This document shows, piece after piece, positions 34,895-52,920 of a DNA stretch of 64,000 bases. The notes below the pieces were generated by a model. That model worked only from the letters and a program-made list of their open reading frames with translations, did not search any database and was not told where the DNA came from. The stretch is from Bacteroidaceae bacterium (GTDB taxonomy: Bacteria; Bacteroidota; Bacteroidia; Bacteroidales; Bacteroidaceae), in assembly GCA_017551925.1 (NCBI GenBank), contig JAFZKA010000115.1, positions 20,490 through 84,489 on the forward strand, in the 5' to 3' direction. The first letter of the stretch is position 1, and each line of letters opens with the position of its first letter. The position numbers and the translations under genes are program-made.

Positions 34895-35000
34895 CATTTG
34901 ATCTAGCGTGATTTCTAACCAGCATTGTTTTTTCAGTGTCATGATAGAAACAGTGGGTCTTGTTCCTATATTCTATTGTCAACAGAAGAAAGTGGTCGAT

Positions 35001-36824
35001 ATGAAAAAAGGATTAACCTTCTTTTTACTAGCCGGGTTGCTATTGTCCTTAGCCGCGAAAGTCGCCGCACAATCAGCAGTAACCAATGTCATTACATTCA
35101 GCTTGGAAGACGTTAGTGATTTATTCATGCCTCCTGAACTGTATGTTGACGTTGATTTTATTGATGATAATGAGAATCGTATTCTGGAAGCTCGTGAAAA
35201 AGGCATTATAAGGCTTGTCCTATCTAATCGTGGTGGTGATGCAGATTACGTTACTGCTTCCATAACACCTGGATCCAAATATCGTGGATTAAATATAGAA
35301 AAGACACAAGTGGTTACAAGCATTAAGGGTGATGAAGAAACCACAATTGATTTTCCTATTTCTGCGTCTATAGATATTCCTACAGACACATTGCTTTTTA
35401 CTATCAAGGTATCAGAGCCAATGGGCTTTGATATAGTCGCATCAATGGTTCTATCCACTTTTGAGTATCAAAAATCTAAAATTGAAATGCAGGGTGTTTC
35501 AATAGTAGATGCTGGTAGAGGATTGAGAGCAAAGAATAACAATCCTGATGGTATGGTCCAGAAAAGTGAGGTAGTTAGAGCATATGTTTCCCTACAAAAC
35601 ACAGGTAGTGGTATTGCCAATGACGTACAGTATACAATTACTTCAAAAGACCAGAATGTCATACTCATGAATGAAAGCGGCAATGTCCCGTCAATTAATG
35701 GAACAATTGACCATATGTTGTCTGGTGAGACTCAAGAAGTGTCTTTCCGCATGAGTGTAAACAATAATTATAAGGCATCATCAGAGTTCCTTCCTGTTTT
35801 TATAACGGTTAAGGAAAAAGAGGACTTCGGCAATCTTGCTTCTACAGTTATCCCGATTCCTCTTGATAAGACTCCGGCAGAACCCAAAATAGTGGACATC
35901 AAGGGCGAGAAAGAAAAACTGCTCGCTTCACTTCAGATGACAAAAGTTTCTTCCGATGACGGGCGTGTTTCATTCAATAAAAACATCCGTGATATTAGTA
36001 TTGCGCCTTCAGGCGAACCAATATACAAAGATGCTGTAGCCATAGTAATTGGTGCCGAAAAGAACTCATATGGAGTTGCACCTGCGCCATATGCTGCAAG
36101 GGATGCAAAAGTGATGGCCAACTATTTTAAGAACGCACTTGGCATAAGTGATGAAAACATTAAACTTAGGACTGATAATGAGGTTACCAAAAATGAATTA
36201 AGTGATTTGCTTGATTCTCGCTATGGATATTTGTCAAGAGTCGTTGAGCCGGGTAAAACTGATGTATTTGTATACTATTCCGGTCATGGAATCCCTGATG
36301 TCGCTAGTGATGGTAGCCAAGACATATATCTTTTCCCATATGATGCCAGAAAGGAATTGGTCAAAGACCGTGGCTATAGTTTGAATAAGCTGTATGCCGA
36401 TTTGAATTCTCTGAATGCACGTTCTGTTACCGTCATTCTTGATGCTTGCTTCAGTGGGTCATCAAGGCAAACAGTCACATATGAATCTGAGAATATCAGC
36501 AATGAAAAAGGCATTCGTATTTCAATGCCGCAAATGACAAATAGGCCTTGGGATACGAATCCTAATTTCAGAGTATTCACTTCATCTACTGAGGATCAAA
36601 CATCCTTGGGTTATGATCAATCACAATCCGGACTGTTTACTTATTTCTTGGCAACAGGTTTACAGGGTGACGCAGATAAAGATGGAGACGGAACAATACG
36701 ATTCAATGAACTTGTTGATTTTGTTACAACAAATGTTTCTAATGAATCACAGAAGATTCGTGGTGGTGCTCAAAGTCCCCAATTCTATGGAGACGGTAAC
36801 TTTATAATTGAAAAGATCAAATGA
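35001..36824 (+). CDS. Exported caspase-family (peptidase C14) protein with N-terminal Ig/CARDB-like domains
   Basis: The ATG at 35001 gives signal peptide MKKGLTFFLLAGLLLSLAAKVAAQS. Catalytic His in VFVYYSGHGIP and Cys in VILDACFSGSS, with typical spacing. Confidence 0.85.
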   Translation: MKKGLTFFLLAGLLLSLAAKVAAQSAVTNVITFSLEDVSDLFMPPELYVDVDFIDDNENRILEAREKGIIRLVLSNRGGDADYVTASITPGSKYRGLNIEKTQVVTSIKGDEETTIDFPISASIDIPTDTLLFTIKVSEPMGFDIVASMVLSTFEYQKSKIEMQGVSIVDAGRGLRAKNNNPDGMVQKSEVVRAYVSLQNTGSGIANDVQYTITSKDQNVILMNESGNVPSINGTIDHMLSGETQEVSFRMSVNNNYKASSEFLPVFITVKEKEDFGNLASTVIPIPLDKTPAEPKIVDIKGEKEKLLASLQMTKVSSDDGRVSFNKNIRDISIAPSGEPIYKDAVAIVIGAEKNSYGVAPAPYAARDAKVMANYFKNALGISDENIKLRTDNEVTKNELSDLLDSRYGYLSRVVEPGKTDVFVYYSGHGIPDVASDGSQDIYLFPYDARKELVKDRGYSLNKLYADLNSLNARSVTVILDACFSGSSRQTVTYESENISNEKGIRISMPQMTNRPWDTNPNFRVFTSSTEDQTSLGYDQSQSGLFTYFLATGLQGDADKDGDGTIRFNELVDFVTTNVSNESQKIRGGAQSPQFYGDGNFIIEKIK

Positions 36825-37672: not shown

Positions 37673-37683
37673 AAACAAGAACA

Positions 37684-40600
37684 ATGAGAGTTAGAACTTT
37701 TTTGGCACTTGCAGTAGTCGCCTTTTCCACATTGAATATTGGATGTGATGAAGAGACGAAGCAACTGAATATATCCAATTTTGAGAAGCCAACCATCTCG
37801 ATAGATTCCGTTACTATTTCAACAAGTAATCTTGGGATAGTATTGTCCGGTTCATATAAAACCGTAAACAGTGATGAGAAAATATCAGAATGTGGTTTTT
37901 ATTACTATTCAGAAAAGAATAAGGATTCCATCATTAAAACGCCAGTTGCTATAGTCAATAATACTTTTTCTGTTTCATTGCTATTGAAAGACTATGGAAC
38001 AACTTATTATTACAAAGCTTATATCTCAAACGGTGTATATTCAATTGAATCTGAAGAAAAGTCTTTCAAACTTCTGGACTTAAAAGATTATGTAAGGATT
38101 TCCAGTCCTGGTATAGTTTCATCAAATAGTGGGACTGTTATTCTTAAAAGTGATATCAATCAGGCAAGTGGTGTCAACATAACTGAGAAAGGAGTGATTG
38201 TGGGCGCAACAGAGCAATTGACAATAGATTCAACACATTATGTGGATAAATCACAATCTTCTACAATTAATGTCACGGTTAATGAATTAGCGATAGGTTC
38301 TAAGTACTATTTCCGGTCATACATAAAGGATGGCGAATATCTTGCATATAGCAACACAAACAGTTTTATTCCACATGCAGTACCTTCTATTTCCACGGTT
38401 CAAGTTAACAATATAGACTATTATTCAGCATACTCGGGGGGATATAATATTTGCAGTAATGGCTTGGATATTATCTCAAAGGGTATAGTGTGGAGCAAAA
38501 CAGTTAATCCAACAGTTGGCAACTCTTATATCAAGTCATTAGACATCTCTGATGAAAAAGAATTTACATGCCAACTAACCGATCTAGACCCAGGTATCAC
38601 ATATTATGTTCGTGCATTTGCCATCAACAGTGATGGTACAGGATATGGCGAAGAATTCTCTTTCGCAACCATTGCCTTAAAGAGGCCAACCATAAGCACT
38701 GACTCTATATGGGACATAACAAGTTCATCGGTAAAGGTTAGTGGTAAGGTTATTTCGGACGGTGGTACCTCTGTTACAGAAAGAGGCATTGTGTTGGGTA
38801 CATCTCATAATCCCACAGTCGAATCAGGGACTAAAACAATTTCTGGCAACGGCTTAGGTGGCTTTACATGCTCATTCTCGGAACTTTTGCCAGGAACAAC
38901 CTATTATGTTAGAGCTTATGCTATTAACTCTGTTGGTGTAGAATATGGTGCTGAGAATTCATTTACTACAAATACTACTCTTCCAACAGTAAACTCTATC
39001 AGCGCATCTGATATTACGTCTTCATCTGCCGTGATAAGTGGTGCTGTTACTGCAGCAGGCGGTACCAGTGTAACAGAGCGTGGAATAGTTTGGAGTACAT
39101 CTGATAATCCTACAATTGAAAATAATAAAAAGATTTCAGGTGATGGATTGGGAGAGTTCTCTGTCACATTATCAGATTTGGCATTTGCTACAACTTATTT
39201 CGTGCGTGCATATGCAATCAATTCAGTAGGTGTTTCCTATGGTAGTTCGGTCAGCTTTACTACAAATGCTATTTTACCAGTATTATCCACTGCGTCAATT
39301 ACGTCAATAACTAGTAACTCTGCGGTTTCTGGAGGCGAAATAACAAGTGATGGCGGTGCTACAGTAACAGCCCGTGGTGTGGTATGGAACAAAGAGGAGA
39401 ATCCCACAACAGAGCTTTCAACAAAAACAACTGATGGCACAGGCTCAGGCTCATTCTCATCAAGTATTACAGGTCTTGAGCCAGGCATAACATATCACGT
39501 TCGTGCCTACGCCACCAATTCAATAGGAACAGCTTATGGCCCCGATGAATCATTCACCACATTAACAACAATTCCTTCTGTTATAACATCTGCAGCATCT
39601 GATATATCACCCACCACCGCAACAGTGGCTGGTAACGTAACAGCTACAGGTGGAGCAGAAGTTACAGAACGCGGTATTGTTTGGGGTACAACAGAAAGTC
39701 CTACAGTGGATGATAATAAAGAAATCAGCGGTAAAGGTCATGGTGAGTTCTCTGTTGCTCTATCAAATCTTACTATTGCTACTACCTATTATGCTCGTGC
39801 ATATGCAGTTAATTCAGTCGGCGTTGCATATGGCAATATGGTACAGTTTACAACTGGAATGGTAAAGCCTACAATCTCAACAGTTTCTGTTACATCCATA
39901 ACAAGCAGTTCTGCTATATCGGGCGGCAATATAACAAGTGATGGAGGTTCAACGGTCACTGCTCGCGGTGTGGTATGGAGTACTGATAATAATCCTAATA
40001 TAGAACTAACCACAAAAACGGCCGATGGTACAGGCTCTGGAGTTTTTTCATCGAATATCACTGGTCTTGAGCCAGGCGTAACATATTATGTTCGTGCATA
40101 TGCCACTAATTCCATAGGCACCTCTTATGGTTCAGAGGAGTCATTCACGACAAAGCCTATTCTATCAACAGTCAGCACTTCAAGTGCTTCAGAGATTACT
40201 TCATCATCCTTCAAGATAGGAGGTAATGTGACAGCTACAGGTGGTGCTGATGTTACCGAACGTGGTGTTGTTTGGGGAACAAGTGAAGATCCGACCATAG
40301 ATGACAATAAAAAAACTAGCGGAAAAGGACTTGGAGAATTCTCTGTTACTCTATCAGAGCTGACGTTTGCAACAACATACTACGTTCGTGCTTATGCAGT
40401 AAACGCTGCAGGTGTTTCTTACGGCAGTACTATAGCCGTTACAACTAATGCAATCTTAGCAGAATTGTCAACTGCATCAATAACATCAATTACCAGTAGT
40501 TCTGCTGTGTCTGGAGGTAATATTTCCAGTGACGGTGGCGCAATAGTTTCGGCACGTGGTGTGGTATGGAGTACAGAAAAGGATCCTACTATTAGTCTTT

Positions 40601-41682
40601 CAACTAAAACGGCTGATGGCACTGGCAGTGGCTCGTTCACATCAAACATATCAGGTCTTGAACCGGGTGTAAAATATTACGTCCGTGCATATGCCACTAA
40701 CTCTAAAGGAACATCTTATGGCTCAGAAGAGTCATTCACAACAAAGCCCATTTTATCAACAGTCAGTACTTCAAGTGCATCAGATATTACTTCTTCATCC
40801 TTTAAGATTGGAGGTAATGTAACAGCTTCAGGTGGTGCAGATATTACTGAACGTGGTGTCGTTTGGGATACAACAGAGGAACCAACCATAGATGACAATA
40901 AAAAATCCAGCGGAGAAGGTCTTGGAGAGTTTACTGTTACATTGTCAGAATTAACGTTTGCAACTACATACTATGTTCGTGCATATGCGGTAAATTCTGC
41001 AGGTGTATCATATGGCAATTCTGTAACAGTTACAACAGAGGCAATCTTACCTGAATTGTCAACAGTATCAATAACATCAATTACCAGTAGTTCTGCTGTG
41101 TCTGGAGGTAATATTTCCAGTGACGGTGGTGCAATAGTTACGGCACGTGGTGTGGTATGGAGTACAGAAAAGGAGCCAACTATAAATCTTACTACAAAAA
41201 CGGTTGATGGTACAGGATCGGGAGAATTCTCATCAAACATCACTGGTCTTGAACCGGGTGTAACATATTATGTCCGTGCATATGCCACTAACTCTATAGG
41301 CACTGCTTATGGCACTGAAGTATCATTCACAGCTGATATTAATCTGCCTTCTGTAACTACAAATTCTGTATCATCTGTTTCGTCAACTACTATCAGTATT
41401 GGTGGCAACGTAACAAGTGAGGGAGGTGGTAGTGTAATAGCAAGAGGTGTAGTATGGAGCACAACAGAGAATCCAACAGTAGAATTGACCACAAAAACTG
41501 CAGATGGCTCAGGCTACGGATCCTACACCAGTTCAATCACAGAACTTCAGCCAAACACAGTTTACTACATCAGGGCTTATGCAACCAATGCTAAAGGCAC
41601 CGCTTACGGAGAACAGGTCACAGTTCAAACCAAAGCTCAAGGTAGTAATGAAGATGTAGGAAATGAAGATTATGAATGGTAA
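37684..41682 (+). CDS. 1332-aa surface lipoprotein made of 13 Fn3/Ig-like beta-sandwich repeats
   Basis: Lipobox STLNIGCDE. Thirteen repeats, each ending in a TxYY[VFI]RAYAxNxxG..YG..xxFTT-type motif and containing [RK]G[IV]VW[SG]T..NPT. Confidence 0.8.
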   Translation: MRVRTFLALAVVAFSTLNIGCDEETKQLNISNFEKPTISIDSVTISTSNLGIVLSGSYKTVNSDEKISECGFYYYSEKNKDSIIKTPVAIVNNTFSVSLLLKDYGTTYYYKAYISNGVYSIESEEKSFKLLDLKDYVRISSPGIVSSNSGTVILKSDINQASGVNITEKGVIVGATEQLTIDSTHYVDKSQSSTINVTVNELAIGSKYYFRSYIKDGEYLAYSNTNSFIPHAVPSISTVQVNNIDYYSAYSGGYNICSNGLDIISKGIVWSKTVNPTVGNSYIKSLDISDEKEFTCQLTDLDPGITYYVRAFAINSDGTGYGEEFSFATIALKRPTISTDSIWDITSSSVKVSGKVISDGGTSVTERGIVLGTSHNPTVESGTKTISGNGLGGFTCSFSELLPGTTYYVRAYAINSVGVEYGAENSFTTNTTLPTVNSISASDITSSSAVISGAVTAAGGTSVTERGIVWSTSDNPTIENNKKISGDGLGEFSVTLSDLAFATTYFVRAYAINSVGVSYGSSVSFTTNAILPVLSTASITSITSNSAVSGGEITSDGGATVTARGVVWNKEENPTTELSTKTTDGTGSGSFSSSITGLEPGITYHVRAYATNSIGTAYGPDESFTTLTTIPSVITSAASDISPTTATVAGNVTATGGAEVTERGIVWGTTESPTVDDNKEISGKGHGEFSVALSNLTIATTYYARAYAVNSVGVAYGNMVQFTTGMVKPTISTVSVTSITSSSAISGGNITSDGGSTVTARGVVWSTDNNPNIELTTKTADGTGSGVFSSNITGLEPGVTYYVRAYATNSIGTSYGSEESFTTKPILSTVSTSSASEITSSSFKIGGNVTATGGADVTERGVVWGTSEDPTIDDNKKTSGKGLGEFSVTLSELTFATTYYVRAYAVNAAGVSYGSTIAVTTNAILAELSTASITSITSSSAVSGGNISSDGGAIVSARGVVWSTEKDPTISLSTKTADGTGSGSFTSNISGLEPGVKYYVRAYATNSKGTSYGSEESFTTKPILSTVSTSSASDITSSSFKIGGNVTASGGADITERGVVWDTTEEPTIDDNKKSSGEGLGEFTVTLSELTFATTYYVRAYAVNSAGVSYGNSVTVTTEAILPELSTVSITSITSSSAVSGGNISSDGGAIVTARGVVWSTEKEPTINLTTKTVDGTGSGEFSSNITGLEPGVTYYVRAYATNSIGTAYGTEVSFTADINLPSVTTNSVSSVSSTTISIGGNVTSEGGGSVIARGVVWSTTENPTVELTTKTADGSGYGSYTSSITELQPNTVYYIRAYATNAKGTAYGEQVTVQTKAQGSNEDVGNEDYEW
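40150..41331 (+). repeat. Two tandem 591-bp (two-domain) DNA units inside the 1332-aa gene
   Basis: The units start with acaaagcc at 40150 and 40741. 40476..40583 versus 41067..41174 is 106/108 identical. More diverged units with the same period extend upstream. Confidence 0.85.
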
Positions 41683-41773
41683 TTTTTATGATCGTGATAG
41701 ATTTGTTTTTCGTTATCCCTATATATGTTCAGAAAGCAAAAAATAATCATAAACCAATTTAACAATTCAAATT

Positions 41774-42406
41774 ATGAAAAAGATTATCACAGTATTGATG
41801 GCAGCTATGATGATTATAACATCTTCATATGCTCAGACTTCAAAAGAACTTAAACAGATTGCCAAAGAAGCAAAAAAAGAAGCTAAGCAATTTAAAAAAG
41901 AAGGCTGGTTAGTGGCACCTGGGCAACTTCCATTGGAAGAGCAGTTCAAAACTTCATATTCAATGAAGAAGGAGAGGGATGATAATGGGTTGCCTAAATA
42001 TATTTTTGGTGAGGCAATGTCTGTAGGCGAAATTTATGATGCTGCAAGCCGCAATGCAAAACAGCTGGCAACAGAAGATCTTGCATCACGTATTCAAACA
42101 GAAGTTACAAACTTAATAGAGACTACCGTAGCAAACGAACAAATCTCTCAAGATGATGCATCTTCATTAGCCCGTTACGTGAATGCTGGTAAAAGTCTTA
42201 TAGTTCAACGTATAGGCAGGACCATTTCTGTCGTGGAATGTTACAGGACACAAAAGAATGGAACAATACAGGTAAGATCTATTTTGGCTTATAATGAAAA
42301 GATGGCGATGGAAGCAGCTAAAGCCGTAATTAAAAAACAACTTGAAGAAAAAGGCCAGGATCTTCACGAGCAGCTTGATGCAATTTGGGATCAATACGGA
42401 AAATAA
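41774..42406 (+). CDS. Exported LPP20-like protein (hypothetical)
   Basis: Signal peptide MKKIITVLMAAMMIITSSYAQ. Lys-rich helix followed by an alpha/beta domain resembling LPP20-family lipoproteins. Weak call. Confidence 0.4.
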   Translation: MKKIITVLMAAMMIITSSYAQTSKELKQIAKEAKKEAKQFKKEGWLVAPGQLPLEEQFKTSYSMKKERDDNGLPKYIFGEAMSVGEIYDAASRNAKQLATEDLASRIQTEVTNLIETTVANEQISQDDASSLARYVNAGKSLIVQRIGRTISVVECYRTQKNGTIQVRSILAYNEKMAMEAAKAVIKKQLEEKGQDLHEQLDAIWDQYGK

Positions 42407-43290: not shown

Positions 43291-43295
43291 AGACT

Positions 43296-44753: not shown

Positions 44754-45340
44754 GGCTCTTAAATTTTAGCAGGAAAGACTTCGCTTCTTGGTCTGATGAC
44801 CGGATGGTTTCCGAATTAATAAGCGGAAATCAGGATGCTATTGTCTGGTTCTTCTATACAAAGTATTCAGCCACATTCCAGTATCATATATTCAAACTGT
44901 TTAATTACAAGGTTGATATCAATGACCTTGTTGATGAGTTCTTCCTTTATCTGTATGAAAATGATTGGAAGCGCCTTCGCTCATTTGACTCTACTCAGGC
45001 TTCGTTAAACACCTGGATTTCTACAGTTTCTTATCGTTTTTTCAGAGATTATAAGCAGTCAGTGATAGATTCTGATGGCGATAGTCCTACAAATGATATG
45101 TGGGACTCAACTTATTCTGATTGGGTGAGCAGTTGTGATGCAGGCATAATGATGGATGTTAACAATGCAATTAACCAGATTAAGAATGAGAGAGACAAGC
45201 AGATTGCATCGCGGTTGTTTTTGGAAGATAAGGAATATGAATCTGTTGCTCAGGAGTTCGGTCTTACGGTAGATTATGTATATACCGTCAAGAATAGGCT
45301 AATTAAACAGTTAAGAACAACTTTAAAAGATTACAATTAA
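44750..45340 (+). CDS. ECF-type RNA polymerase sigma-70 family factor
   Basis: ATGA overlap with the previous gene. Region 2-like LVDEFFLYLYENDWKRLRSFDSTQASLNTWISTVSYRFFRDY. Region 4 HTH EYESVAQEFGLTVDYVYTVKNRLIKQLR. Confidence 0.8.
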   Translation: MRLLNFSRKDFASWSDDRMVSELISGNQDAIVWFFYTKYSATFQYHIFKLFNYKVDINDLVDEFFLYLYENDWKRLRSFDSTQASLNTWISTVSYRFFRDYKQSVIDSDGDSPTNDMWDSTYSDWVSSCDAGIMMDVNNAINQIKNERDKQIASRLFLEDKEYESVAQEFGLTVDYVYTVKNRLIKQLRTTLKDYN

Positions 45341-45341
45341 A

Positions 45342-45713
45342 ATGAATGAGGAACTGCAAATAAATGAAGCCGCTCGTTTGGCGGGTACAAAAGCACCTGT
45401 ACAGATGTCACAGGCTCGGGCTCGTGATTTTGTCTCCAAAACATTGGGTACAGCAAATAAAAAGTCCTCGTTCAGGAATTTCTATTTGCAGAAGCCGGTG
45501 TATGCTTGGGGCAGTACCGTCCTTGCTGCAGCCGCATGTTTTTTGATTGCATTCTTTGTCCTTAAACCTTCCAATGGTTCAATTGATCAATTCGGTCAGC
45601 CAGGTAGATTTATGGAGAATCAGTCCAATCATGCAGGGATATCGGTTGTCGATAGCACATTAATTGAGTCATCTGATTCAATTGAAATAACAGTTGTAGA
45701 AACTATTGAGTAG
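45342..45713 (+). CDS. Putative anti-sigma factor (single-pass membrane protein)
   Basis: Starts 1 nt after the sigma gene. One TM helix (WGSTVLAAAACFLIAFFVL). Call rests on position only. Confidence 0.5.
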   Translation: MNEELQINEAARLAGTKAPVQMSQARARDFVSKTLGTANKKSSFRNFYLQKPVYAWGSTVLAAAACFLIAFFVLKPSNGSIDQFGQPGRFMENQSNHAGISVVDSTLIESSDSIEITVVETIE

Positions 45714-45715
45714 AA

Positions 45716-47176
45716 ATGAGTAAACGCTTCTGGCATATAATAATCATCTTGTGCCTACATGTTGTAGCGCAGGCACAGGTGTCTGATTTCCGCAGAGCAT
45801 TTGATGAATTCACTGCGAATGCCAGAACATCATATAACACATTCTCCGATTCAGTTAACGCCGTTTTTGCTGAAGCACTGAAAGAGGATTGGTCAAAATA
45901 TAAAACAGAGGATGCAATTGAGCGGTCTTCAGTTCCGGAACCTACCGAAGCTCCTGTTGTCACAGGCAAAGAGCAACCGTCCAATAGATCGATTAATGTG
46001 TTGGATGAAAAGGAAATCACTCCTACTCAGTTGCCAGTTTCTGCCGATACTGTCAAATGGGAAACATCTGCAGCACCTACATTTGATACACGTTATGTCC
46101 GTTTCACATTCTTCGATTCAGAACAGGTTATACAGATTCCCAGAGAATATGGAACTTTCCATCCAAGCGGAATATCTGAGGTTGACGTTTCCGTATTCTG
46201 GAAACGCTTGAGTGATTATGACTATCGTACCATCTTGTCTGAATGTACTAAGTTGCGGGGAGCCTATGGCTATAATGATTGGGCGTTGTTGCTATGGGTA
46301 AAAGCTCTATCTGGTGCCATATTCAAGGAGAACATAAACTCGGAACAAACAATCTTCTCCATATTTGTTCTAAATCAATTGGGCCTAATGACAAAGGTTG
46401 CCAGGGTGGATAAAGAACTCATAATGCTGTTCTCTTCTCAACAAACAATATACTCTCGCAAGTTTATTGTAGTTGACACATATCCGTATTATACAGTCGA
46501 GGAATCTTCCCCGGCTGATGATGTTTTTACATACGCCACTAAGATGACTGTTGATTCACGCCCTTTGGATATGCATTTCAATGGCATAATGCAGTTAGGT
46601 AGTAAGGCTTCTTATAAGACCTATCACAAGTATTCAAGTTTACTTAATCGTGAACTAACATTACCAATAAGTACATCAGTAACATCATTCTACAGTCATT
46701 ATCCTCAACTTGATGTAAATATCTATGCTTCAGCAACTCCTAACGAGTCTTTCTCATCAAGTTTATTGGATAGCATTCGTCCTGCATTAATAGGGAAATC
46801 AGAATTAGAATCCGTAAACTTCTTGCTCCAGTTCTGTCAGAAACAGTTTGATTATAAAACAGATCTTGAGCAGTTCGGATATGAAAAACCATTCTTCCTG
46901 GAAGAGAATTTCGTATATGACTATAATGATTGCGAAGACCGTTCAATACTGTTCTCATATTTAGTAACTACTCTTCTACAGAGACCAGTAATATTTCTCG
47001 ATTATCCTGGTCATGTAGCTGCAGCAGTTAATCTTTCAGAGGAAATCAAGGGTGATTTCGTTAAACTAGGAGATAACAAATACTACATATGTGATCCCAC
47101 TTACATAGGGGCATCGGTCGGAATGACTATTCCGGAATATAAAAATCAATCTGTCAGAGTATGGAAAATCCGTTGA
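45716..47176 (+). CDS. Exported transglutaminase-fold (Cys-His-Asp) protein, paralog B
   Basis: Signal peptide MSKRFWHIIIILCLHVVAQAQ. YNDCEDRSILFSYLV..DYPGHVAAAV..YYICDPTYIGASVG. Confidence 0.6.
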   Translation: MSKRFWHIIIILCLHVVAQAQVSDFRRAFDEFTANARTSYNTFSDSVNAVFAEALKEDWSKYKTEDAIERSSVPEPTEAPVVTGKEQPSNRSINVLDEKEITPTQLPVSADTVKWETSAAPTFDTRYVRFTFFDSEQVIQIPREYGTFHPSGISEVDVSVFWKRLSDYDYRTILSECTKLRGAYGYNDWALLLWVKALSGAIFKENINSEQTIFSIFVLNQLGLMTKVARVDKELIMLFSSQQTIYSRKFIVVDTYPYYTVEESSPADDVFTYATKMTVDSRPLDMHFNGIMQLGSKASYKTYHKYSSLLNRELTLPISTSVTSFYSHYPQLDVNIYASATPNESFSSSLLDSIRPALIGKSELESVNFLLQFCQKQFDYKTDLEQFGYEKPFFLEENFVYDYNDCEDRSILFSYLVTTLLQRPVIFLDYPGHVAAAVNLSEEIKGDFVKLGDNKYYICDPTYIGASVGMTIPEYKNQSVRVWKIR

Positions 47177-47178
47177 AA

Positions 47179-50100
47179 ATGAAACATATATCACTGTTAT
47201 TCATAGCTGTGGGCTTATTAATTTTTGGCAGCTGCCTAGAGGATAATAAGAGACTTATTTCTATAGAAGAAGACAATACTGTCCCCTTGCATTTTTATGC
47301 TAGGATAGAGTCTCAACCCGATTCCGCAGCTACTAAATCGGCTTTAAGCGGAACATCTACTGATGCTATCCGTAAAGTATTGTGGGAGCCGGCAGATAGT
47401 ATATATGTCACAAACGGTTCAACAAGTGCCAGATTCAATAATGTATTTGAGGAGAATTCAGATGTCGCAGATTTTTCAGGTAAAATAGCATTAGGAACCA
47501 CATATTATGCAGCCTTCCCTTATGGTATAGTATCTGGTTTTGAAGCTTCAAAATTCCAACTTACGTTACCAACAATTCAGCCGTATAAAGTTGATGGCGT
47601 TGGTTCTGAAAGTTTTCCAATGGTGGCTCAGTGTGTTGATAACATTTTTGAATTCAAAAATCTCTGTGGTATTTTGGTCCTTAATCTTACTGGCAATGCA
47701 TCCATTGATTCAATACGCTTTTCAGGAACAGATGATACAGATAAACCTATAAAAGTTTCTGGCGCAGCAAACGTCAACGCAACATATGTAGATATCCCAA
47801 GTTTGGAATTAGATTCCACATCAGTCGATTATGTCCTTTTGAACTGTATAGGTTCTGACGGAAGAGGCGTTACACTTAGTTCAACTACGCCAACTCCTTT
47901 CCATATAGTATTGCCAGCGACTGACTATGCCCATTTTACAGTGGTAATTTATTCTTCTGATCGCAGGAAGATGACAATTAACTCAAAGAAGCCTCTTTCA
48001 ATAAAGAGATCAAAGCGTACTACTGCATCAAATATAGAATACCTGATTGATGATCCTGAATATGAATTCATAGATTTAGGTTTAAGTGTTAACTGGGCTA
48101 CATTCAATGTGGGTGCTTACTATCCAGAGGAGTTTGGTAGTTACTACGCATGGGGTGAAACAACCACCAAGAGCATATATAATTGGTCAACGTATAAGTA
48201 TTGTAATGGGAAGTATAATACACTTACAAAGTATTGCAATAATCCTGAATTTGGCTACAACGGTTTTACTGATGGAAAAGATACTTTAGATTTTATAGAT
48301 GATGTTGCTCGTGTGCAATGGAAAGGCGAATGGCGTATACCAACTATTGATGAATTTAATGAGCTACGAGATAATTGTACAATAATAAATACAACCTTAA
48401 ATGGAGTGAATGGATATTTATTTACAAGTAATGTATCCAAATATAAAGATAAATCTATTTTCATTCCAACTGCTGGATATTATAAAGGGGTAGAAATTAT
48501 TGATCGCGGAACTGTAGCCTATTATAGCACTAACACGTTAATGCTACCTGATGAGAATCCTGCTGTTCCTGAAGTGTTCTTGTTATCCCCCAAGAACAAT
48601 AATTCTTATGCGTCAGGGCGCAGTAATGGATGGCCAATACGTCCTGTATATCCTTCTAATGAATGGCTTGACAAAACAACAATTTCAATAGATAAAGAAG
48701 CTTTATCGTTAAGGCTGGAAGAAAAAAACACTTTAACAGCTGTCATGAAATATGATGCTGATACGGTAATTTATAATATCACATGGTCGTCAGATCACCC
48801 AGAAATTGCTTCTGTTTCATCAAATGGAATGGTTACTGGCTTATCAGCAGGTACTGCAATAATAACTGCTTCTTCTCATGGAAAAAAATCAACTTGTACA
48901 GTGAATGTCAATGGACCTGTATATCAATACGTTGATTTAGGCTTAAGTGTAAACTGGGCTACTTTTAATGTTGGTGCATATGCTCCTGAAGAATATGGAA
49001 ATTATTATGCTTGGGGTGAGATTGCAACTACAACTAGATATGAATCATCAACATCAAAGTGGTGGAATACTTCTAAATATCAACAATATCATTCTACTCT
49101 TGATCCAGAAGATGATGTGGCTCATGTGAAATGGGGTGATAATTGGCGTATGCCTACTGCATCAGAATTTAAAGAATTGCTTGATTATTGCAATGTATCC
49201 CCAACTACAATAAACGGCATAGGAGGTTGGAAATTTATAAGTAAAAAAGAAGGTTATACAGATAAATCCATTTTCTTACCTTATGGGGGATACCGTCAAG
49301 ATTATAATTTAAACTATCTGGGATCTAATGGCTATTACTGGTCAAGCACCTCATGCACAGAAGGATCATACATAAAATATTATGCGGGATACTTGTGGTT
49401 TAAACGTGAAGGGATGGGAGATATATCGTATAATGAGAGGTATATTGGTAGAAATGTTCGCCCCGTTTATCCAAAACAGAATGTAACATCTATTTTGTTG
49501 AACAAGAGCGAAGCAACTTTGGCTGTTGGGAAAAATGACAGCCTTGTTGCTACTATAAAAGATGGCAACAACACTATTCAAAGTATAGTATTTTGGTCGT
49601 CTAATAACACAGATATTGTCACTGTCGATGCAAATGGAAAAATAACAGCAGTTGCTATAGGTGAAGCTGTAATAACTGCAGAATGTCAAGGGAAAACCGC
49701 AACGTGTACTGTAACAACAACACTCCCAGAACCAGAATATGTTGATCTGGGCTTAAGTGTAAACTGGGCTACATTCAACGTCGGTGCTCATTTCCCAGAA
49801 GAACATGGTAATTATTATGCATGGGGTGAGATAAATACCAAATCTAGTTATACATGGTCTAATTACAAATGGAATACTGGTAGTAATAATACAGGGTTTA
49901 CAAAGTATTGTGTTGATAGCTATTATGGTGATGGCGGTTTGGTAGATTACTTAACAACTTTGAGTACTGAAGATGATGCCGCCAGTAACACATGGGGTGG
50001 AGATTGGCGTATGCCTTCAAATGATGAAATATACGAACTCATCAATAACTGCACATGGGTGTGGACAACATATAAAGATATAAATGGCTATTTGATAACA

Positions 50101-52920
50101 AGCAAAATACAGGGTTATACAAACAATAATATATTCTTACCAGTAACAGGCGAGTTTGCAGATAAATTATACGATAATACAACAGAAGGATATTATTGGT
50201 CAAATTCATTAAGTCCGGAAGGATATGGAAAGTCATCCACTTCTTGGGGTCTACGTATAAATAAAGATTACTATACTAAGAGTAGTTATATGAGAAATGA
50301 AGGTTTTGCCATTCGTGCTGTAACGCCTTCAGAAACTTGGCTGAACAATGTATCAATCGCACTTAACTATAACTCACAAACAGTTGTAATGAGAGATTCA
50401 TGTGATCTAATAGCAACTGTAAAACACTGCAATGATGTGATTAACAGAAAAGTCACTTGGTCCTCCACAAATCCGTCTATTGCTACAGTTAGCGAAACTG
50501 GTGTAGTTACAGGTATAACTGTAGGTACCACTCTTATAACCGCCACATGTTTAGGTAAAACTGCAACATGCACAATTACAGTAACTCTTCCTGAACCAAA
50601 ATATGTGGATTTAGGCCTAAGCGTCAACTGGGCTACTTTTAATATTGGTTCCCATTTCCCAGAAGAAAGTGGTGATTATTATGCTTGGGGTGAAACAGAA
50701 ATTATTAGTGTTAGTGATTGGGCTAATTACAAATACTGCAATGGTACGAAGAAAACACTTACAAAATACAATACAATCAAGGATTATGGTACTGTTGATA
50801 ATGTAACTGTTCTTAGTATGGTAGATGATGTGGCTGCCAATGTATGGGGTGGAAATTGGCGTTTACCCACTAAGGAAGAAATAGAAGAACTTATAAACAA
50901 TTGCAATTGGACATGGACAACTCTAAATGATATTTATGGTTACGTTGTTAAGAGTACAATAAGTGGTTATACTGATCAAATGATTTTCTTACCAGCAGCA
51001 GGATATTATTATGACTCTTCTCATAATTTGCAAGTTGGCAATAAAGGATACTATTGGTCAAGTTCACTCTATTCAGAAGGTCCTGATTTATCATGGATTA
51101 TTGCAACAGGTTCTAATGAAATAAAAACAGCCAAGAGTGAACGTATAACCGGTCATTCGGTACGTCCTGTTTGTACGTCTGAAACATGGTTGAGTAATGT
51201 ATCAATATCACTTAATAGTAATTCTCAAACCATAATTCAGGGCTCTTCAAATACATTAATTGCTACAGTAAAACATAATAATGATATAATAGACCGTGTA
51301 GTTTCATGGTCTTCCAGCAATCCAAGCATTGCTACTGTAGATAACAATGGTGTAGTTATCGGATTATCAGCAGGTTCCACCATTGTTACGGCAACATGTT
51401 TGAATAAGTCTGTTTCATGTTCTATAACTATAATAGAACCTCAATATGATTATGTTGATTTAGGTCTCAGTGTCAATTGGGCAACCTTTAATGTAGGAGC
51501 AAATAATCCAAAAGAATATGGCGATTATTTCGCTTGGGGAGAAATTGAACCGTATTATGAAACTGGTTATGCAATGGAAAATCCTCAATCACATTGGAAA
51601 GCAGGGAAAACTAACGGTTATAATTGGTCTTCTTACAAATGGGGTGATCCAAATAACTTGACAAAATATAACACGCAGAATGACAAGGGTATTGTTGATA
51701 ATAAAACTAGTCTTGACCTTGAAGATGATGTTGCACATATTAAATGGGGCAATAACTGGCGTATGCCAACAAAGGAAGAATGGAAAGAATTAAAAAACAA
51801 CTGTACATGGACATATATTTCGGATGGTGTTAATGCATACCGTGTAACTAGTAATGTCCCAGGATATGAAGGAAATTCTATATTATTGCCGTTTGGTGGT
51901 CATCGCTATGAAGCAAGTCTTAATAGTGTAGATATAGCGGGGTATTATTGGGCCAGTTCTATATTGACAAACATGCCGGGCGAATCATATTCCGTATTAT
52001 TAAATATTAGTAAAGCAAATGTGGATGATGATATGAGTCGTTGTGTCGGTTATTCGGTTAGACCTGTATTAACTTCTGGGACATGGATAAACGATTTATC
52101 AATAAATCTCAATGTAAATAATGTATCATTATTTGTCTACGAAACTATAGAACTCTCAGCAACTGTTAAGAAAGGTAATGATATAATAGATCGGGAAGTT
52201 TCATGGGCATCCAGCAATACAAGTATTGCATCGGTCGATAATAATGGCGTGGTAACTGGTATATCAGAAGGCTCTGCAATAATCTCTGCTACATGTTTGA
52301 GTAAAACCGTAACATGTATTGTGACTGTATCTGCTCCCGAATATGTAGATTTAGGCTTAAGCGTAAAATGGGCAACAAGTAACGTAGGCGCTAATAATCC
52401 AGAGGAATATGGGGATTGTTACGCTTGGGGCGAAATTGAAACCAAAGGTGGTACATATACATGGGATTCTTACAAATATGATAATGGGACGTATAATAAC
52501 ATACGATTAACCAAATATTGCACAAATAAAAACTATGGATACAATAATTTTGTAGATAACAAGATGGTTCTTGACCTTGAAGACGATGTAGCACATGTCA
52601 AATGGGGCGGAAATTGGCGTATGCCCACCTATGCGGAAATAGCTGAACTTAGTAGTAATTGCACTTTTTTATGGACAGAAAGGAATGGTGTAGAAGGTTA
52701 TCTCGTAACTAGTAACGTTTCTGGTTATACAGGTCGATCTATCTTCCTTCCGCTTCAATCCGAAGAGAATAATAAATATTGGACAAGTACTCTGTATCAA
52801 AAAAGTCAGAGTTCCTATTCTGGAGCTGCCTGGACTTTTAAGTATGGTGAATCGGATAACATAGGAATAATGTACTATGACCGCTATAATAAAGGTCTTG
52901 TACGCCCAGTTTGTCCATAA
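47179..52920 (+). CDS. Giant lipoprotein: fimbrillin-like N-domain + 6 lectin-like (FISUMP/DUF1566-like) modules alternating with 5 Big_2 domains
   Basis: The ATG at 47179 gives MKHISLLFIAVGLLIFGSCLED (lipobox). Six copies of VDLGLSVNWATFNVGA..PEE.G.YYAWGE...WRMPT..E..EL...GYYWSS. Five Big_2 domains (e.g. VTWSSTNPSIATVSETGVVTGITVGTTLITATC). Confidence 0.8.
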   Translation: MKHISLLFIAVGLLIFGSCLEDNKRLISIEEDNTVPLHFYARIESQPDSAATKSALSGTSTDAIRKVLWEPADSIYVTNGSTSARFNNVFEENSDVADFSGKIALGTTYYAAFPYGIVSGFEASKFQLTLPTIQPYKVDGVGSESFPMVAQCVDNIFEFKNLCGILVLNLTGNASIDSIRFSGTDDTDKPIKVSGAANVNATYVDIPSLELDSTSVDYVLLNCIGSDGRGVTLSSTTPTPFHIVLPATDYAHFTVVIYSSDRRKMTINSKKPLSIKRSKRTTASNIEYLIDDPEYEFIDLGLSVNWATFNVGAYYPEEFGSYYAWGETTTKSIYNWSTYKYCNGKYNTLTKYCNNPEFGYNGFTDGKDTLDFIDDVARVQWKGEWRIPTIDEFNELRDNCTIINTTLNGVNGYLFTSNVSKYKDKSIFIPTAGYYKGVEIIDRGTVAYYSTNTLMLPDENPAVPEVFLLSPKNNNSYASGRSNGWPIRPVYPSNEWLDKTTISIDKEALSLRLEEKNTLTAVMKYDADTVIYNITWSSDHPEIASVSSNGMVTGLSAGTAIITASSHGKKSTCTVNVNGPVYQYVDLGLSVNWATFNVGAYAPEEYGNYYAWGEIATTTRYESSTSKWWNTSKYQQYHSTLDPEDDVAHVKWGDNWRMPTASEFKELLDYCNVSPTTINGIGGWKFISKKEGYTDKSIFLPYGGYRQDYNLNYLGSNGYYWSSTSCTEGSYIKYYAGYLWFKREGMGDISYNERYIGRNVRPVYPKQNVTSILLNKSEATLAVGKNDSLVATIKDGNNTIQSIVFWSSNNTDIVTVDANGKITAVAIGEAVITAECQGKTATCTVTTTLPEPEYVDLGLSVNWATFNVGAHFPEEHGNYYAWGEINTKSSYTWSNYKWNTGSNNTGFTKYCVDSYYGDGGLVDYLTTLSTEDDAASNTWGGDWRMPSNDEIYELINNCTWVWTTYKDINGYLITSKIQGYTNNNIFLPVTGEFADKLYDNTTEGYYWSNSLSPEGYGKSSTSWGLRINKDYYTKSSYMRNEGFAIRAVTPSETWLNNVSIALNYNSQTVVMRDSCDLIATVKHCNDVINRKVTWSSTNPSIATVSETGVVTGITVGTTLITATCLGKTATCTITVTLPEPKYVDLGLSVNWATFNIGSHFPEESGDYYAWGETEIISVSDWANYKYCNGTKKTLTKYNTIKDYGTVDNVTVLSMVDDVAANVWGGNWRLPTKEEIEELINNCNWTWTTLNDIYGYVVKSTISGYTDQMIFLPAAGYYYDSSHNLQVGNKGYYWSSSLYSEGPDLSWIIATGSNEIKTAKSERITGHSVRPVCTSETWLSNVSISLNSNSQTIIQGSSNTLIATVKHNNDIIDRVVSWSSSNPSIATVDNNGVVIGLSAGSTIVTATCLNKSVSCSITIIEPQYDYVDLGLSVNWATFNVGANNPKEYGDYFAWGEIEPYYETGYAMENPQSHWKAGKTNGYNWSSYKWGDPNNLTKYNTQNDKGIVDNKTSLDLEDDVAHIKWGNNWRMPTKEEWKELKNNCTWTYISDGVNAYRVTSNVPGYEGNSILLPFGGHRYEASLNSVDIAGYYWASSILTNMPGESYSVLLNISKANVDDDMSRCVGYSVRPVLTSGTWINDLSINLNVNNVSLFVYETIELSATVKKGNDIIDREVSWASSNTSIASVDNNGVVTGISEGSAIISATCLSKTVTCIVTVSAPEYVDLGLSVKWATSNVGANNPEEYGDCYAWGEIETKGGTYTWDSYKYDNGTYNNIRLTKYCTNKNYGYNNFVDNKMVLDLEDDVAHVKWGGNWRMPTYAEIAELSSNCTFLWTERNGVEGYLVTSNVSGYTGRSIFLPLQSEENNKYWTSTLYQKSQSSYSGAAWTFKYGESDNIGIMYYDRYNKGLVRPVCP
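48073..52917 (+). repeat. Six ~810-890-bp coding repeat modules
   Basis: The conserved ga[tc][tc]t[ag]gg[tc][tc]t[aac]ag[tc]gt..aa[ac]tgggc motif starts at 48073, 48934, 49744, 50608, 51457 and 52348. Confidence 0.8.

Follow-up and report, generated by a model that had tools for sequence, protein, structure and literature searches.

A conserved envelope gene cluster of gut Bacteroidales combines an exported caspase with LapG-like proteins predicted from models and appears to be controlled by its own sigma factor

We analysed a 64,000-nucleotide stretch of DNA from a Bacteroidaceae bacterium (the window) and found that ten adjacent genes, here numbered G1 to G10, form a genuine, conserved and uncharacterised envelope cluster of gut Bacteroidales. 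Judging from the sequence, the cluster appears to be switched on by its own sigma factor through a bipartite motif, TGATAGA-N16-CCTATAT. The genes fall into two units. Unit 1 encodes an exported caspase (G1), a probable small outer-membrane barrel (G2) and a predicted surface lipoprotein with 13 Fn3-like repeats (G3); unit 2 encodes the exported protein G4, the DUF4384 protein G5, the LapG-like protein G6, the ECF-type sigma factor G7, the candidate anti-sigma factor G8, the G6 paralogue G9 and the giant lipoprotein G10. Our preferred reading, to which we give about an even chance of being right, is that these are two G7-driven units whose exported cysteine proteases process, mature or release giant adhesins.

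All ten open reading frames lie on the + strand at the positions given in an earlier note on this DNA, and the junctions listed there (−4, +11, +91, −1, +5, −4, +1, +2 and +2 nt) were reproduced exactly; these figures use ATG starts, at 35001 for G1, 42406 for G5 and 47179 for G10. With those starts, nine of the ten products are exact sequences in public protein collections, NCBI MBR5936451-59 of a Bacteroidaceae MAG among them. Homologues were found for each of the ten genes, and the set as such is seen again in other genomes. The catalytic motifs quoted earlier for G1, G6 and G9 are all present and intact. We read the export signals of all ten products by eye, and the earlier claim that every product except the sigma factor carries a signal peptide, lipobox or transmembrane helix stood: G1, G2, G4, G5, G6 and G9 each carry a cleavable signal peptide with A/S-Q at its end, G3 (IGC21DEE) and G10 (GSC19LED) have a lipobox followed by acidic residues, G8 has a single transmembrane helix (residues 53–78), and G7 has no export signal. 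The cluster region is a low-GC island (0.36–0.40, versus 0.45–0.52 in the flanks). At its end, a hairpin at 52962..53001 (+ strand), 42 nt past the G10 stop and followed by UUUCC, is a candidate terminator of unit 2; its RNA fold reached −21.6 kcal/mol (z = −5.1), with none of 200 shuffles equally stable, and its long loop kept a consensus terminator scan from detecting it. Beyond the cluster region lies a toxin-antitoxin pair that Pfam identified as AbiEii/DUF6577 (AbiE-like).

Control of the cluster appears to center on G7 (44750..45340, + strand; 196 aa), which had been called a sigma factor and was supported as a divergent ECF-type member of the sigma-70 family. It matched TIGR02937 over model positions 6–164 of 165 (E = 1.4e-10), and all seven of its orthologues matched the same model (best E = 1.2e-13); Pfam Sigma70_r2 gave an E-value of 0.007. 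Like other ECF factors, the two-domain G7 aligns with the ECF model at full length and is followed by a gene for a single-pass membrane protein, G8 (45342..45713, + strand; 123 aa; transmembrane helix at about residues 53–78). Unlike typical pairs, G7 scored just under the NCBIfam cut-off (41.1 bits against 42.9), its gene sits in the middle of a unit, overlapping G6 by 4 nt, and G8 carries no recognisable anti-sigma domain. Because G8 had no Pfam or NCBIfam match, its candidate role as the anti-sigma factor of G7 is proposed from position and topology. Across the family, the cytoplasmic N-terminus and a periplasmic tail of ~45 aa are conserved in the alignment, and a G8-type gene with a product of 109–129 aa follows the sigma gene in eight of the nine sigma-containing loci, the ninth (L008) having an ORF of 228 aa.

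The 30-bp motif, whose two halves are spaced like −35 and −10 elements, occurs exactly twice in the 64 kb, against 0.05 matches expected. Copy 1 (34942..34971, + strand) is a candidate ECF promoter that ends 30 nt upstream of the G1 ATG, and copy 2 (41695..41724, + strand) lies in the 91-nt gap between G3 and G4 and ends 50 nt upstream of the G4 ATG. Of the further sigma-containing loci with the region upstream of G4 on the contig, 8 of 8 (L005, L008, L017, L085, L087, L088, L089 and L091) have the motif in front of the G4 homologue, whereas it was found there in 0 of about 47 sigma-less loci. A conserved bipartite motif upstream of the sigma-bearing unit is also what autoregulated ECF pairs have. 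The motif sequence differs from theirs, being unlike the common ECF pattern of a −35 ‘AAC’ and a −10 ‘CGT’, and it could instead bind a regulator other than G7. The Bacteroides housekeeping −7 consensus is TAnnTTTG; a regex scan placed one match, TATTTTTG, upstream of unit 1 (34887..34894, + strand), and copy 2 of the motif overlaps another at 41698. Because the motif stands in front of both G1 and G4, we read the ten genes as two co-regulated units and not as the one coupled operon proposed earlier from their spacing. Each unit has its own motif copy, and the two modules occur in swapped order elsewhere.

The caspase family assignment of G1 (35001..36824, + strand; 607 aa) is secure at the sequence level. 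Behind a signal peptide and an N-terminal region of ~320 aa, which matches a segment of the MXAN_5808 peptidase family in NCBIfam, residues 346–596 matched PF00656 with an E-value of 3.7e-17 (63.2 bits; cut-off 21.4). An NCBIfam caspase model also matched, and NCBI names the protein ‘caspase family protein’. The motifs YYSGH429G and LDAC483FSG hold the catalytic dyad (His429, codon 36285–36287; Cys483, codon 36447–36449), which did not vary across 39 aligned caspases from such clusters, so that the fold and dyad read earlier from the sequence were both borne out. Residues 559–570 form an EF-hand-like loop, and a PDB profile search with G1 returned weak matches to MALT1 (E about 3e-3).

G6 (43296..44753, + strand; 485 aa) is the hallmark of the cluster class. 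Its layout comprises an N-terminal helix, a Pro-rich linker, an alpha/beta domain and a C-terminal transglutaminase/LapG-like domain, and its triad, Cys404-His431-Asp458, was invariant in 41 sequences. The assignment of a transglutaminase-like fold to G6 and its paralogue was upheld by structure and by the Cys-His-Asp triad, but at the sequence level it stayed below threshold. The AlphaFold2 model of G6 (pLDDT 88.8) found LapG at six of the first seven Foldseek ranks (4u65_E, 4fgq, 4fgp), followed by PNGase, TG2/3, 3isr and 3kd4; all top matches have the transglutaminase fold, with E-values of about 1e-2. On the sequence side, Transglut_core (PF01841) matched the C-terminus alone with a best E-value of 0.027, and was sub-threshold in 14 of the 41 family members (best 0.0095). 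An hhalign comparison of G6 with the window’s own Transglut_core protein was not significant, the Pfam matches included no BTLCP-family entry, either for the C-terminal domain (E ≤ 10) or for the 41 members (E ≤ 1), and LapG was not matched at E ≤ 1 in a PDB profile search with G6. The model thus suggests that the C-terminal domain of G6 has a LapG-like/transglutaminase fold closest to that of LapG.

The paralogue G9 (45716..47176, + strand; 486 aa) shares 30% identity with G6 (BLASTP E = 1e-68) and retains the triad as Cys406-His433-Asp460. Proteins of the G9 type adjoin sigma/anti-sigma genes in L005, L017, L008 and L085–L091, and in the loci examined this subfamily was seen only beside such a pair. 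The 485-aa family as a whole is large: it comprises 2,867 clusters at 50% identity, a scan of one genome per GTDB species gave at least 579 matches confirmed by tblastn, and members occur in cultured Segatella copri, Bacteroides muris, B. finegoldii and Parabacteroides. No Pfam model exists for it, and we found no description of it in the literature searched.

Two exported proteins recur with this family. G4 (41774..42406, + strand; 210 aa) has a signal peptide that ends in AQ, a Lys-rich helical N-terminus and a core at residues 75–205; it lacks a lipobox, and it recurs beside the G6 family, in 50 of the 84 loci of that family. An earlier description of G4 as LPP20-like was weakly to moderately supported. 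The G4 profile aligned by hhalign with a B. finegoldii ‘LPP20 family lipoprotein’ (probability 69%, E = 4.3e-5), a reference that takes its name from PGAP and itself comes from a G6 cluster, but Pfam LPP20 (PF02169) was found in only 1 of 42 G4 homologues (E = 0.002), and G4 itself had no Pfam match. On these alignments the G4 core is possibly LPP20-like; the corresponding likeness of the G5 N-terminus had an hhalign probability of 8%. G5 (42406..43290, + strand; 294 aa) had been assigned a DUF4384 domain, and the assignment was supported at the level of the family: the G5 match to PF14326 fell under the cut-off (E = 4.5e-5; 23.9 bits, cut-off 27), and 36 of 37 homologues matched (best E = 9.5e-9). 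G5 is present in 46 of the 84 loci.

The remaining products point to the cell surface. G2 (36821..37672, + strand; 283 aa) is an exported protein with an N-terminal domain of ~120 aa and a Gly-rich C-terminal region ending in GIGLMF. It matched OMP_b-brl (PF13505) with an E-value of 0.041, and two of eight homologues also matched (best 2.5e-4); the homologues share a conserved Gly pattern and an invariant terminal Phe. A G2-type barrel gene lies directly upstream of that for a large repeat lipoprotein in 8 of 8 loci, and in all of the giant proteins after the barrel, acidic residues come after the lipobox Cys. From its profile match, Gly pattern and position, G2 is probably a small outer-membrane beta-barrel. 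G3 (37684..41682, + strand; 1,332 aa; lipobox Cys21-DEE) matched fn3 and related Pfam models and carries 13 YYxRAY repeat marks, and its DNA has repeats with periods of 297 and 591 nt. Its homologues adjoin G2-like barrels in other loci, and G3 is predicted to be surface-exposed. G10 (47179..52920, + strand; 1,913 aa; lipobox Cys19-LED) begins with a module of two sandwiches (residues 1–298), followed by six FISUMP/Lcl_C modules alternating with five Big_2 domains (Pfam Big_2 ×5 and Lcl_C; NCBIfam FISUMP).

That these genes co-occur in other Bacteroidales genomes, as the earlier note had expected, was confirmed. The G6 family closes variable envelope clusters, most often in the order G4–DUF4384–caspase–G6; a caspase is present in 49 of the 84 loci, and the G4-G5-caspase-G6 core in about 46–50. 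The window holds a rarer, extended variant with sigma, anti-sigma, second paralogue, barrel, giant lipoproteins and caspase, which was found with its modules shuffled in about ten other loci; L005, L085, L087, L088, L089, L091 and L008 have the full set in differing orders. Giant lipoproteins and the barrel accompanied the sigma variant in 8 of 8 loci with enough flanking sequence. Accessory genes in other variants encode CHASE2, WD40, Sel1 and PEGA domains. Small outer-membrane barrels with added domains (PEGA plus barrel, CarboxypepD_reg plus barrel, and G2) occur in at least 25 G6 loci, and in five loci the caspase gene and G6 are separated by a gene for a YkuD L,D-transpeptidase. The core cluster lies amid housekeeping genes in many genomes. 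At L087, SIR2_2 and PLDc_2 genes stand beside the caspase gene, and integrase genes are near L090.

These neighborhoods resemble those of C14 orthocaspases and metacaspases, in which a C14 domain with a His/Cys dyad is accompanied by DUF4384, CHASE2, WD40, Sel1/TPR, PEGA or FGE-sulfatase domains; the same partner domains recur across the cluster variants. The difference is that in the present clusters each partner is an exported protein of its own, encoded at a fixed place, and not a fusion to a cytoplasmic caspase, and that the clusters always end in the G6 family. The association of DUF4384 with caspases has been noted in the cyanobacterial orthocaspase literature (PMC7475262, PMC8283722).

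The Lap system of Pseudomonas and Legionella offers a second comparison. LapG is a transglutaminase-like cysteine protease of the BTLCP class that acts on the giant adhesin LapA. Similarly, the solved structures closest to the periplasmic Cys-His-Asp domain of G6 are those of LapG, and G6 is encoded beside giant repetitive surface adhesins and an outer-membrane component and has DCED around its catalytic Cys, which we take to resemble BTLCPs. In contrast to the Lap system, the cluster has neither a LapD/c-di-GMP receptor nor type I secretion genes, it would be controlled by an ECF sigma factor and not by c-di-GMP, its adhesins are lipoproteins and not RTX proteins, and G6 and G9, which fall under all Pfam thresholds, have an extra N-terminal region of ~340 aa. 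G3 and G10 also lack an N-terminal TAAG-type cleavage site: LapA-type TAAG/PAAG is found once in each protein, at residue 456 in G3 and at residue 1272 in G10, far from the N-termini.

We propose that an envelope signal would free G7 from G8; G9, which is always adjacent, may trigger this by cutting the short conserved periplasmic tail of G8. G7 would then transcribe both units from the TGATAGA-N16-CCTATAT promoters and, because the G7-driven units include G7’s own gene, this would produce positive feedback. The products may build a surface layer of giant repeat adhesins, in which G3 and G10 would be lipoproteins with an acidic surface-export signal, partnered with the barrel G2. The caspase G1 and the LapG-like G6, with G4 and G5 as accessory proteins, would process, mature or release these adhesins, a functional parallel to the action of LapG on LapA. 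Giant lipoproteins are missing from the surroundings of most G6-family loci, and therefore adhesins cannot be the universal substrate; the G4-G5-caspase-G6 core, far more widespread than the giants, probably has a more general envelope-protein substrate, and the ECF variant may have recruited the core to the adhesins. It counts against adhesin processing that lipoproteins flipped to the outer leaflet would be out of reach of periplasmic proteases.

The wide spread of the core is also the starting point of a different explanation, in which G4, G5, the caspase and G6/G9 are a periplasmic proteolytic module for sensing or quality control and the giants are cargo of the regulon and not substrates. 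In the ECF variant its output would be transcription, with G9 or the caspase cutting G8 as a site-1 protease. This would fit the absence of giant proteins beside the core in most loci, the restriction of G9-type paralogues to sigma/anti-sigma pairs, the short conserved tail of G8, and the CHASE2, WD40, Sel1 and PEGA accessories, which are typical sensor or scaffold domains. Against it, the presence of barrel and giants with the sigma variant in all eight loci argues that they are integral and not incidental, and G8 cleavage is hypothetical; we consider this account unlikely, though it deserves to be kept in mind. The earlier note had favored a fiber like type V pili, in which caspase G1 would trim the lipidated N-terminus of G10 and the transglutaminase-fold proteins would cross-link or trim subunits. 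In Bacteroidia, the FimA/Mfa lipoprotein prepilins of type V pili are matured by Arg-gingipain, a protease of clan CD, family C25, and many C14 orthocaspases cleave after Arg or Lys. The fimbrillin-like start assigned to G10 was weakly supported. The AlphaFold2 model of the module (pLDDT 78) has two beta-sandwiches, and its sole significant Foldseek match was the P. gingivalis tip pilin Mfa3 (5nf4_A; E = 4.5e-5, probability 1.0), but the TM-score was 0.32, no other type V pilin structure was among the matches, and no Pfam fimbrillin (even at E ≤ 10) or PDB sequence matched. Residues 34–43 form an N-terminal strand, followed by a disordered loop ending at Arg65, which is invariant in the alignment of eight module sequences; this is the topology expected of a type V prepilin cleavage site, and the cluster does encode a clan CD protease. 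On this model, residues 1–298 of G10 are weakly type-V-pilin-like. The module has only seven homologues among 5.8 billion proteins and therefore is not a conserved part of the system; neither G3 nor the giant proteins of sister loci contain it, and in G10 what comes behind it is 1,600 aa of FISUMP/Big_2 repeats and not the C-terminal donor strand of a type V pilin. The 31–56 kb region was found to have no pilin genes of the stalk, anchor or usher-like kinds. G1 is a C14 protease and not a C25 one, and it probably acts in the periplasm instead of being secreted by a T9SS. Cross-linking by the transglutaminase-fold proteins was likewise unsupported, the structures nearest G6 being proteases and not cross-linking enzymes. 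As for the caspase being a dedicated pilin maturase, that claim was not supported: 49 of 84 loci have a caspase versus 8 with a G10-like match, and those eight matches are to the repeat domains and not to the pilin-like module. Support for a pilus maturase is at best weak, and we regard the pilus explanation as improbable.

Two further explanations are less probable again. One is that G6-family clusters remodel the links between outer membrane and peptidoglycan, with the transglutaminase/papain-fold enzyme and the caspase cutting the tethers that would bind barrel proteins with periplasmic domains to the wall. The barrels with added domains in at least 25 loci and the five YkuD genes would suit such a role, which we judge very improbable: YkuD is missing from the window and from most loci, Pfam and NCBIfam found no peptidoglycan-binding domain in any window protein, and the structural neighbors of G6 are protein-directed enzymes. 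Least probable of all is a conflict or defense system (phage defense or inter-bacterial antagonism) on a horizontally acquired island. The low GC content, the downstream toxin-antitoxin pair, a weak PADLOC caspase match for G1 (9.6e-10) and the neighbors of L087 and L090 point that way, but the effector-like proteins are all exported and none is cytoplasmic, the cluster contains no defense-type NTPase, nuclease or sensor, nine of the ten proteins had no PADLOC match, and the core sits among housekeeping genes in many genomes.

The adhesin-processing reading can be extended. A bolder version, which we think quite unlikely, holds that in the ECF variant the exported caspase and LapG-like system signals by cutting the short periplasmic tail of a new type of anti-sigma factor and also matures or sheds the giant surface lipoprotein adhesins; this maturation may include trimming pilin-like modules of their lipidated N-terminus. 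Members of the Bacteroidales are dominant in the mammalian gut, and it is their surface proteins that govern adhesion, immune recognition and phage sensitivity. If the proposal is true, the cluster would be a previously unrecognised periplasmic cysteine-protease system in gut Bacteroidales, with a LapG-like family for which Pfam offers no model. Processing of surface adhesins or an anti-sigma factor by exported caspases and LapG-like proteases would constitute a new pathway of envelope proteolysis, and bacterial caspase homologues would gain a concrete role beyond cell death and defense. The system would also be a candidate maturase of type V pilin-like proteins in species without gingipains, for which we know of no identified maturase. 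The motif TGATAGA-N16-CCTATAT offers a direct and cheap experimental handle on cluster control; at L091 a second copy lies 33 nt upstream of the caspase gene, mirroring the arrangement in the window.

All ten open reading frames at window 35001–52920 lie on the + strand, and the junctions reported in the earlier note (−4, +11, +91, −1, +5, −4, +1, +2 and +2 nt) were reproduced exactly with its ATG starts. With those starts, nine of the ten products (G1–G10, in gene order) were exact matches to entries in public protein collections. These included NCBI MBR5936451–59 from a Bacteroidaceae MAG, which are named ‘caspase family protein’, ‘DUF4384 domain-containing protein’ and ‘sigma-70 family RNA polymerase sigma factor’, and are otherwise hypothetical. 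Read by eye, the N-terminal sequences indicated signal-peptidase-I type leaders with A/S-Q ends for G1, G2, G4, G5, G6 and G9, a lipobox followed by acidic residues for the giant lipoproteins G3 and G10, and one transmembrane helix for the candidate anti-sigma factor G8; no export signal was recognized in the N-terminus of the sigma factor G7. Thus, the claim that every product except the sigma factor carries a leader, lipobox or transmembrane helix held. GC content was 0.36–0.40 in the cluster versus 0.45–0.52 around it, with housekeeping genes on both sides.

The catalytic strings quoted earlier for the caspase and for both 485-aa paralogues were all present in the sequence. Caspase G1 matched PF00656 at 63.2 bits (cut-off 21.4) and its residues H429 and C483 were invariant among 39 cluster-associated homologues, which bore out the caspase-fold call; judged by sequence, its membership of the C14 family is secure. 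A search of the PDB with the G1 sequence found nothing, and a search with the caspase family profile was swamped by the Sel1 repeats of some members, leaving weak matches to MALT1. Residues 559–570 of G1 (window 36675–36710), DKDGDGTIRFNE, look like a canonical EF-hand loop of 12 residues (Pfam EF-hand_1, E 0.0028). Control by Ca2+ is known for metacaspases and for LapG, and by analogy with these enzymes the loop hints at Ca2+ control of G1.

The DUF4384 call gained support at family level: G5 itself fell just under the cut-off, and 36 of its 37 orthologues matched. G7 is probably a divergent ECF-type sigma factor; its alignment to the ECF superfamily model spanned the whole protein and scored 41.1 bits against a cut-off of 42.9, and all seven orthologues tested matched the model (best 1.2e-13). 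Searches of Pfam, NCBIfam and PADLOC returned nothing for G2, G4, G6, G8 or G9. Orthologues of G8 have in common a conserved cytoplasmic N-terminus, a single transmembrane helix and a short periplasmic tail that is conserved as well (residues 79–123 in G8). Matches of G2 to outer membrane beta-barrels were weak; its glycine pattern is conserved and its C-terminal Phe invariant. For G4, described earlier as LPP20-like, a profile alignment to the PGAP-named ‘LPP20 family lipoprotein’ of a related B. finegoldii cluster (69% probability, E 4.3e-5) spoke for the likeness and the lack of a Pfam match against it, leaving it plausible, not established. Profiles of the G4, G5 and G6 families found no match in the PDB. 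Lipoprotein G3 contains 13 Fn3-like repeats, and in G10 six FISUMP/Lcl_C modules alternate with five Big_2 domains.

The 485-aa proteins G6 and G9 share 30% identity (E 1e-68), and no Pfam or NCBIfam model covers either of them. From 41 sequences, AlphaFold2 gave a confident model of G6 (pLDDT 88.8, pTM 0.86). Its best PDB structure matches were to LapG, a transglutaminase-like cysteine protease of the periplasm that frees the adhesin LapA, followed by PNGase, transglutaminases 2 and 3, and two putative Bacteroidetes cysteine proteases. Since the match is confined to the C-terminal ~150 residues, the E-values were modest (8e-3 and upwards). Residues C404, H431 and D458 are invariant throughout the G6 family, whose commonest sub-threshold Pfam match was Transglut_core (14/41 members); the catalytic Cys of G9 is C406. 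The transglutaminase fold proposed earlier is therefore backed by structure and motif, whereas sequence does not support membership of the family. An hhalign comparison of the G6 family with the Transglut_core lipoprotein encoded at window 32407–33918 aligned the catalytic Cys and was not significant. The family is large: a word-indexed search gave more than 3,966 matches, clustering at 50% identity gave 2,867 clusters (1,395 of them at E ≤ 1e-30), and a one-genome-per-species GTDB scan gave at least 579 tblastn-confirmed matches.

We analysed 84 loci, each centred on a G6 homologue, and the cluster genes co-occurred in other genomes as the earlier note would have it: 50 loci have a G4 homologue, 46 a G5 homologue and 49 a caspase, most commonly in the order G4-G5-(x)-caspase(s)-(y)-G6. 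Chance adjacency was ruled out because synteny is kept at 37–65% protein identity. Elsewhere G6 is accompanied by a ~630-aa protein and a PEGA+OMP-barrel protein, by DUF6175 with LPP20-type proteins, by CHASE2, WD40, Sel1, FGE-sulfatase/PEGA or YkuD proteins, or by CarboxypepD_reg+barrel proteins. Partners are swapped between architectures; therefore, G6 is the constant element of a variable class of envelope clusters. One such locus lies in the cultured human-gut species B. finegoldii (NZ_OY725910.1, 93830–101055), where genes annotated hypothetical, DUF6175, LPP20 (625 aa), LPP20 (193 aa) and hypothetical are closed by a G6-family gene; this 101-kb sequence is labelled a ‘plasmid’ and carries dprA and other housekeeping genes. 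Besides B. finegoldii, the core cluster has cultured carriers in Segatella copri HDD05 (L041), Bacteroides muris and Parabacteroides acidifaciens, whereas the window comes from an uncultured MAG.

The window cluster belongs to an extended variant in which the sigma factor, the anti-sigma factor and a G9-type paralogue always occur together (loci L005, L008, L017 and L085–L091). Giant lipoproteins of Fn3 or Big_2/FISUMP type were present in every sigma locus with enough flanking sequence, as was a caspase except in L085, whose analysed flank breaks off within the last giant gene; six of the eight loci with enough flank have a G2-like barrel. Locus L005 has the order G4-G5-G6-sigma-anti-sigma-G9-barrel-Fn3 (1,539 aa)-caspase, and L087 and L089 resemble it; the giant protein of L088 is of Big_2/Lcl_C type, and L091 has its giant proteins upstream, like the window. 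In all eight cases the barrel gene is followed directly by a large lipoprotein gene, and in every large lipoprotein adjoining a barrel the lipidated Cys is followed by acidic residues, as in the surface-export signal of Bacteroidetes. The conserved cluster combines exported proteins of cysteine-protease fold with accessory proteins, a probable outer membrane barrel and giant lipoproteins. In L087 (14699–18311), SIR2_2-like and PLDc_2 genes stand on either side of the caspase gene, and in L090 (5019–8267) three tandem phage-integrase genes adjoin a truncated cluster; this unrelated cargo suggests that the extended variant resides in recombination-prone, island-like regions.

A bipartite motif, TGATAGA-N16-CCTATAT, emerged when upstream regions were compared; the 64-kb window has exactly two matches to it (0.05 expected by chance), each on the + strand. 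One copy (34942–34971) lies 30 nt before the G1 ATG, and the other (41695–41724) lies in the G3–G4 gap, 50 nt before the G4 ATG. In eight sigma loci the motif recurs with the same spacing, 11–60 nt before the true start of the G4 homologue, with no mismatch in L005, one in L008, L085, L088 and L089, two in L017, and three in L087 and L091, which have a common variant, TGTAAGATT...TTCC. In L091 a further copy stands 33 nt before the caspase gene, an arrangement like that of the window, and none of the sigma-less loci has the motif upstream of the G4 homologue. This is strong comparative evidence for a cis-acting element that goes with the sigma factor encoded in the cluster, and the motif probably links G1–G3 and G4–G10 to this dedicated ECF-type factor. 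Because the motif stands before both, and because the modules are shuffled elsewhere, we set aside the single ten-gene operon proposed earlier in favour of two co-regulated units. Matches to TAnnTTTG, the Bacteroides housekeeping −7 box, also occur upstream of both units, and a stable hairpin follows G10. A sigma-70 consensus scan of the window was uninformative (88 sites versus 73 expected), and terminators were at chance level.

A motif-like sequence, AGATAGATTTGAAyGG...ATTACTATAA, also occurs within the sigma gene, ~310 nt from its start, in all orthologues (L085, L087–L091); the window copy is TGATAGATTCTGATGGCGATAGTCCTACAA (45063–45092). It encodes a conserved peptide, KIDLNGLITIS, so conservation of the protein alone may account for it; it may also be an internal promoter that serves the anti-sigma gene and G9.

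We give roughly even chances to a mechanism of sigma-controlled adhesin display with proteolytic processing or release. An envelope signal would inactivate G8, possibly through cutting of its tail by G9; G7 would then switch on both units, its own gene included; the barrel would help display the giant lipoproteins; and the periplasmic proteases would process or release them, by analogy with LapG and LapA. Neither G3 nor G10 showed a LapA-type cleavage motif close to its N-terminus. A protease module that serves sensing or quality control, and for which the adhesins are no more than cargo, is rather unlikely, remodelling of outer membrane–peptidoglycan tethers is highly improbable, and we lend hardly any credence to a defence or conflict system.

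The earlier note had proposed that the caspase matures a pilin-like G10, which we consider improbable. The first 300 residues of G10 had no match in Pfam or PDB sequence searches and only seven homologues among 5.8 billion proteins. Their AlphaFold model (pLDDT 78) comprises two beta-sandwiches, and its sole significant Foldseek match was Mfa3, a tip pilin of P. gingivalis (E 4.5e-5, TM 0.32). The model also predicts an N-terminal strand and then a disordered loop up to an invariant Arg65, reminiscent of a prepilin cleavage site. Against pilus maturation, the module is shared neither with G3 nor with the giant protein of L073, the cluster lacks stalk or anchor pilin genes, and caspases stand beside G6 in dozens of loci without a G10-module protein. 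Maturation cannot explain the cluster class; for G10 specifically it may still apply.

Four known systems are the closest analogues. The Lap system shares the enzyme fold and the adhesin logic, whereas every other part differs; type V pili offer a weak structural echo. Orthocaspase domain neighbourhoods contain the same partner domains, which in the cluster are separate exported proteins, and the fourth analogue is the ECF sigma/anti-sigma pair. No description of the cluster was found in the literature searched on DUF4384, caspase, Bacteroides, transglutaminase-like and ECF. We conclude that it is probably an ECF-controlled cluster of surface proteins and proteases, built on a large protein family without a Pfam model, and its regulatory prediction (sigma factor plus motif) is open to immediate testing.

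The low-GC stretch spans window 31000–55500 (GC 0.36–0.43; flanking housekeeping genes 0.45–0.52), with methylmalonyl-CoA carboxyltransferase and epimerase-like genes on its left and a non-specific endonuclease on its right. No tRNA or integrase was found at the stretch, no att-like direct repeats flank it, and an Rfam search of the window gave no RNA family. At its left edge, between a 524-aa ORF and an HTH gene, sits a perfect 23-bp inverted repeat (31060–31082/31232–31254, arms 149 nt apart). At 31334–32348 (− strand) the HTH_3 (Cro/C1-type) gene overlaps a 211-aa gene without a family match; the two face away from the cluster and may be a toxin-antitoxin-like or regulator pair. Two further + strand lipoprotein genes of this low-GC island, each preceded by a TAnnTTTG box, encode a bona fide Transglut_core protein (E 1.3e-20) with Big_2 and BACON domains (32407–33918) and a 145-aa protein of no family (34058–34495); loci L071, L072 and L081 have, close to their G6 genes, Transglut_core/Big_2 proteins of weak similarity. 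Directly downstream of the cluster (53579–55413, − strand) are genes for an AbiEii nucleotidyltransferase toxin and for a DUF6577 (AbiEi-like) protein, which resemble a toxin-antitoxin pair of type IV or an abortive-infection pair. A second lower-GC segment (~0.45; 2854–9408, + strand) adjoins a GH3 glycosidase gene; its products are a Cthe_2159 carbohydrate-binding-like protein and two members of the CotH kinase family, of 1,015 and 497 aa.
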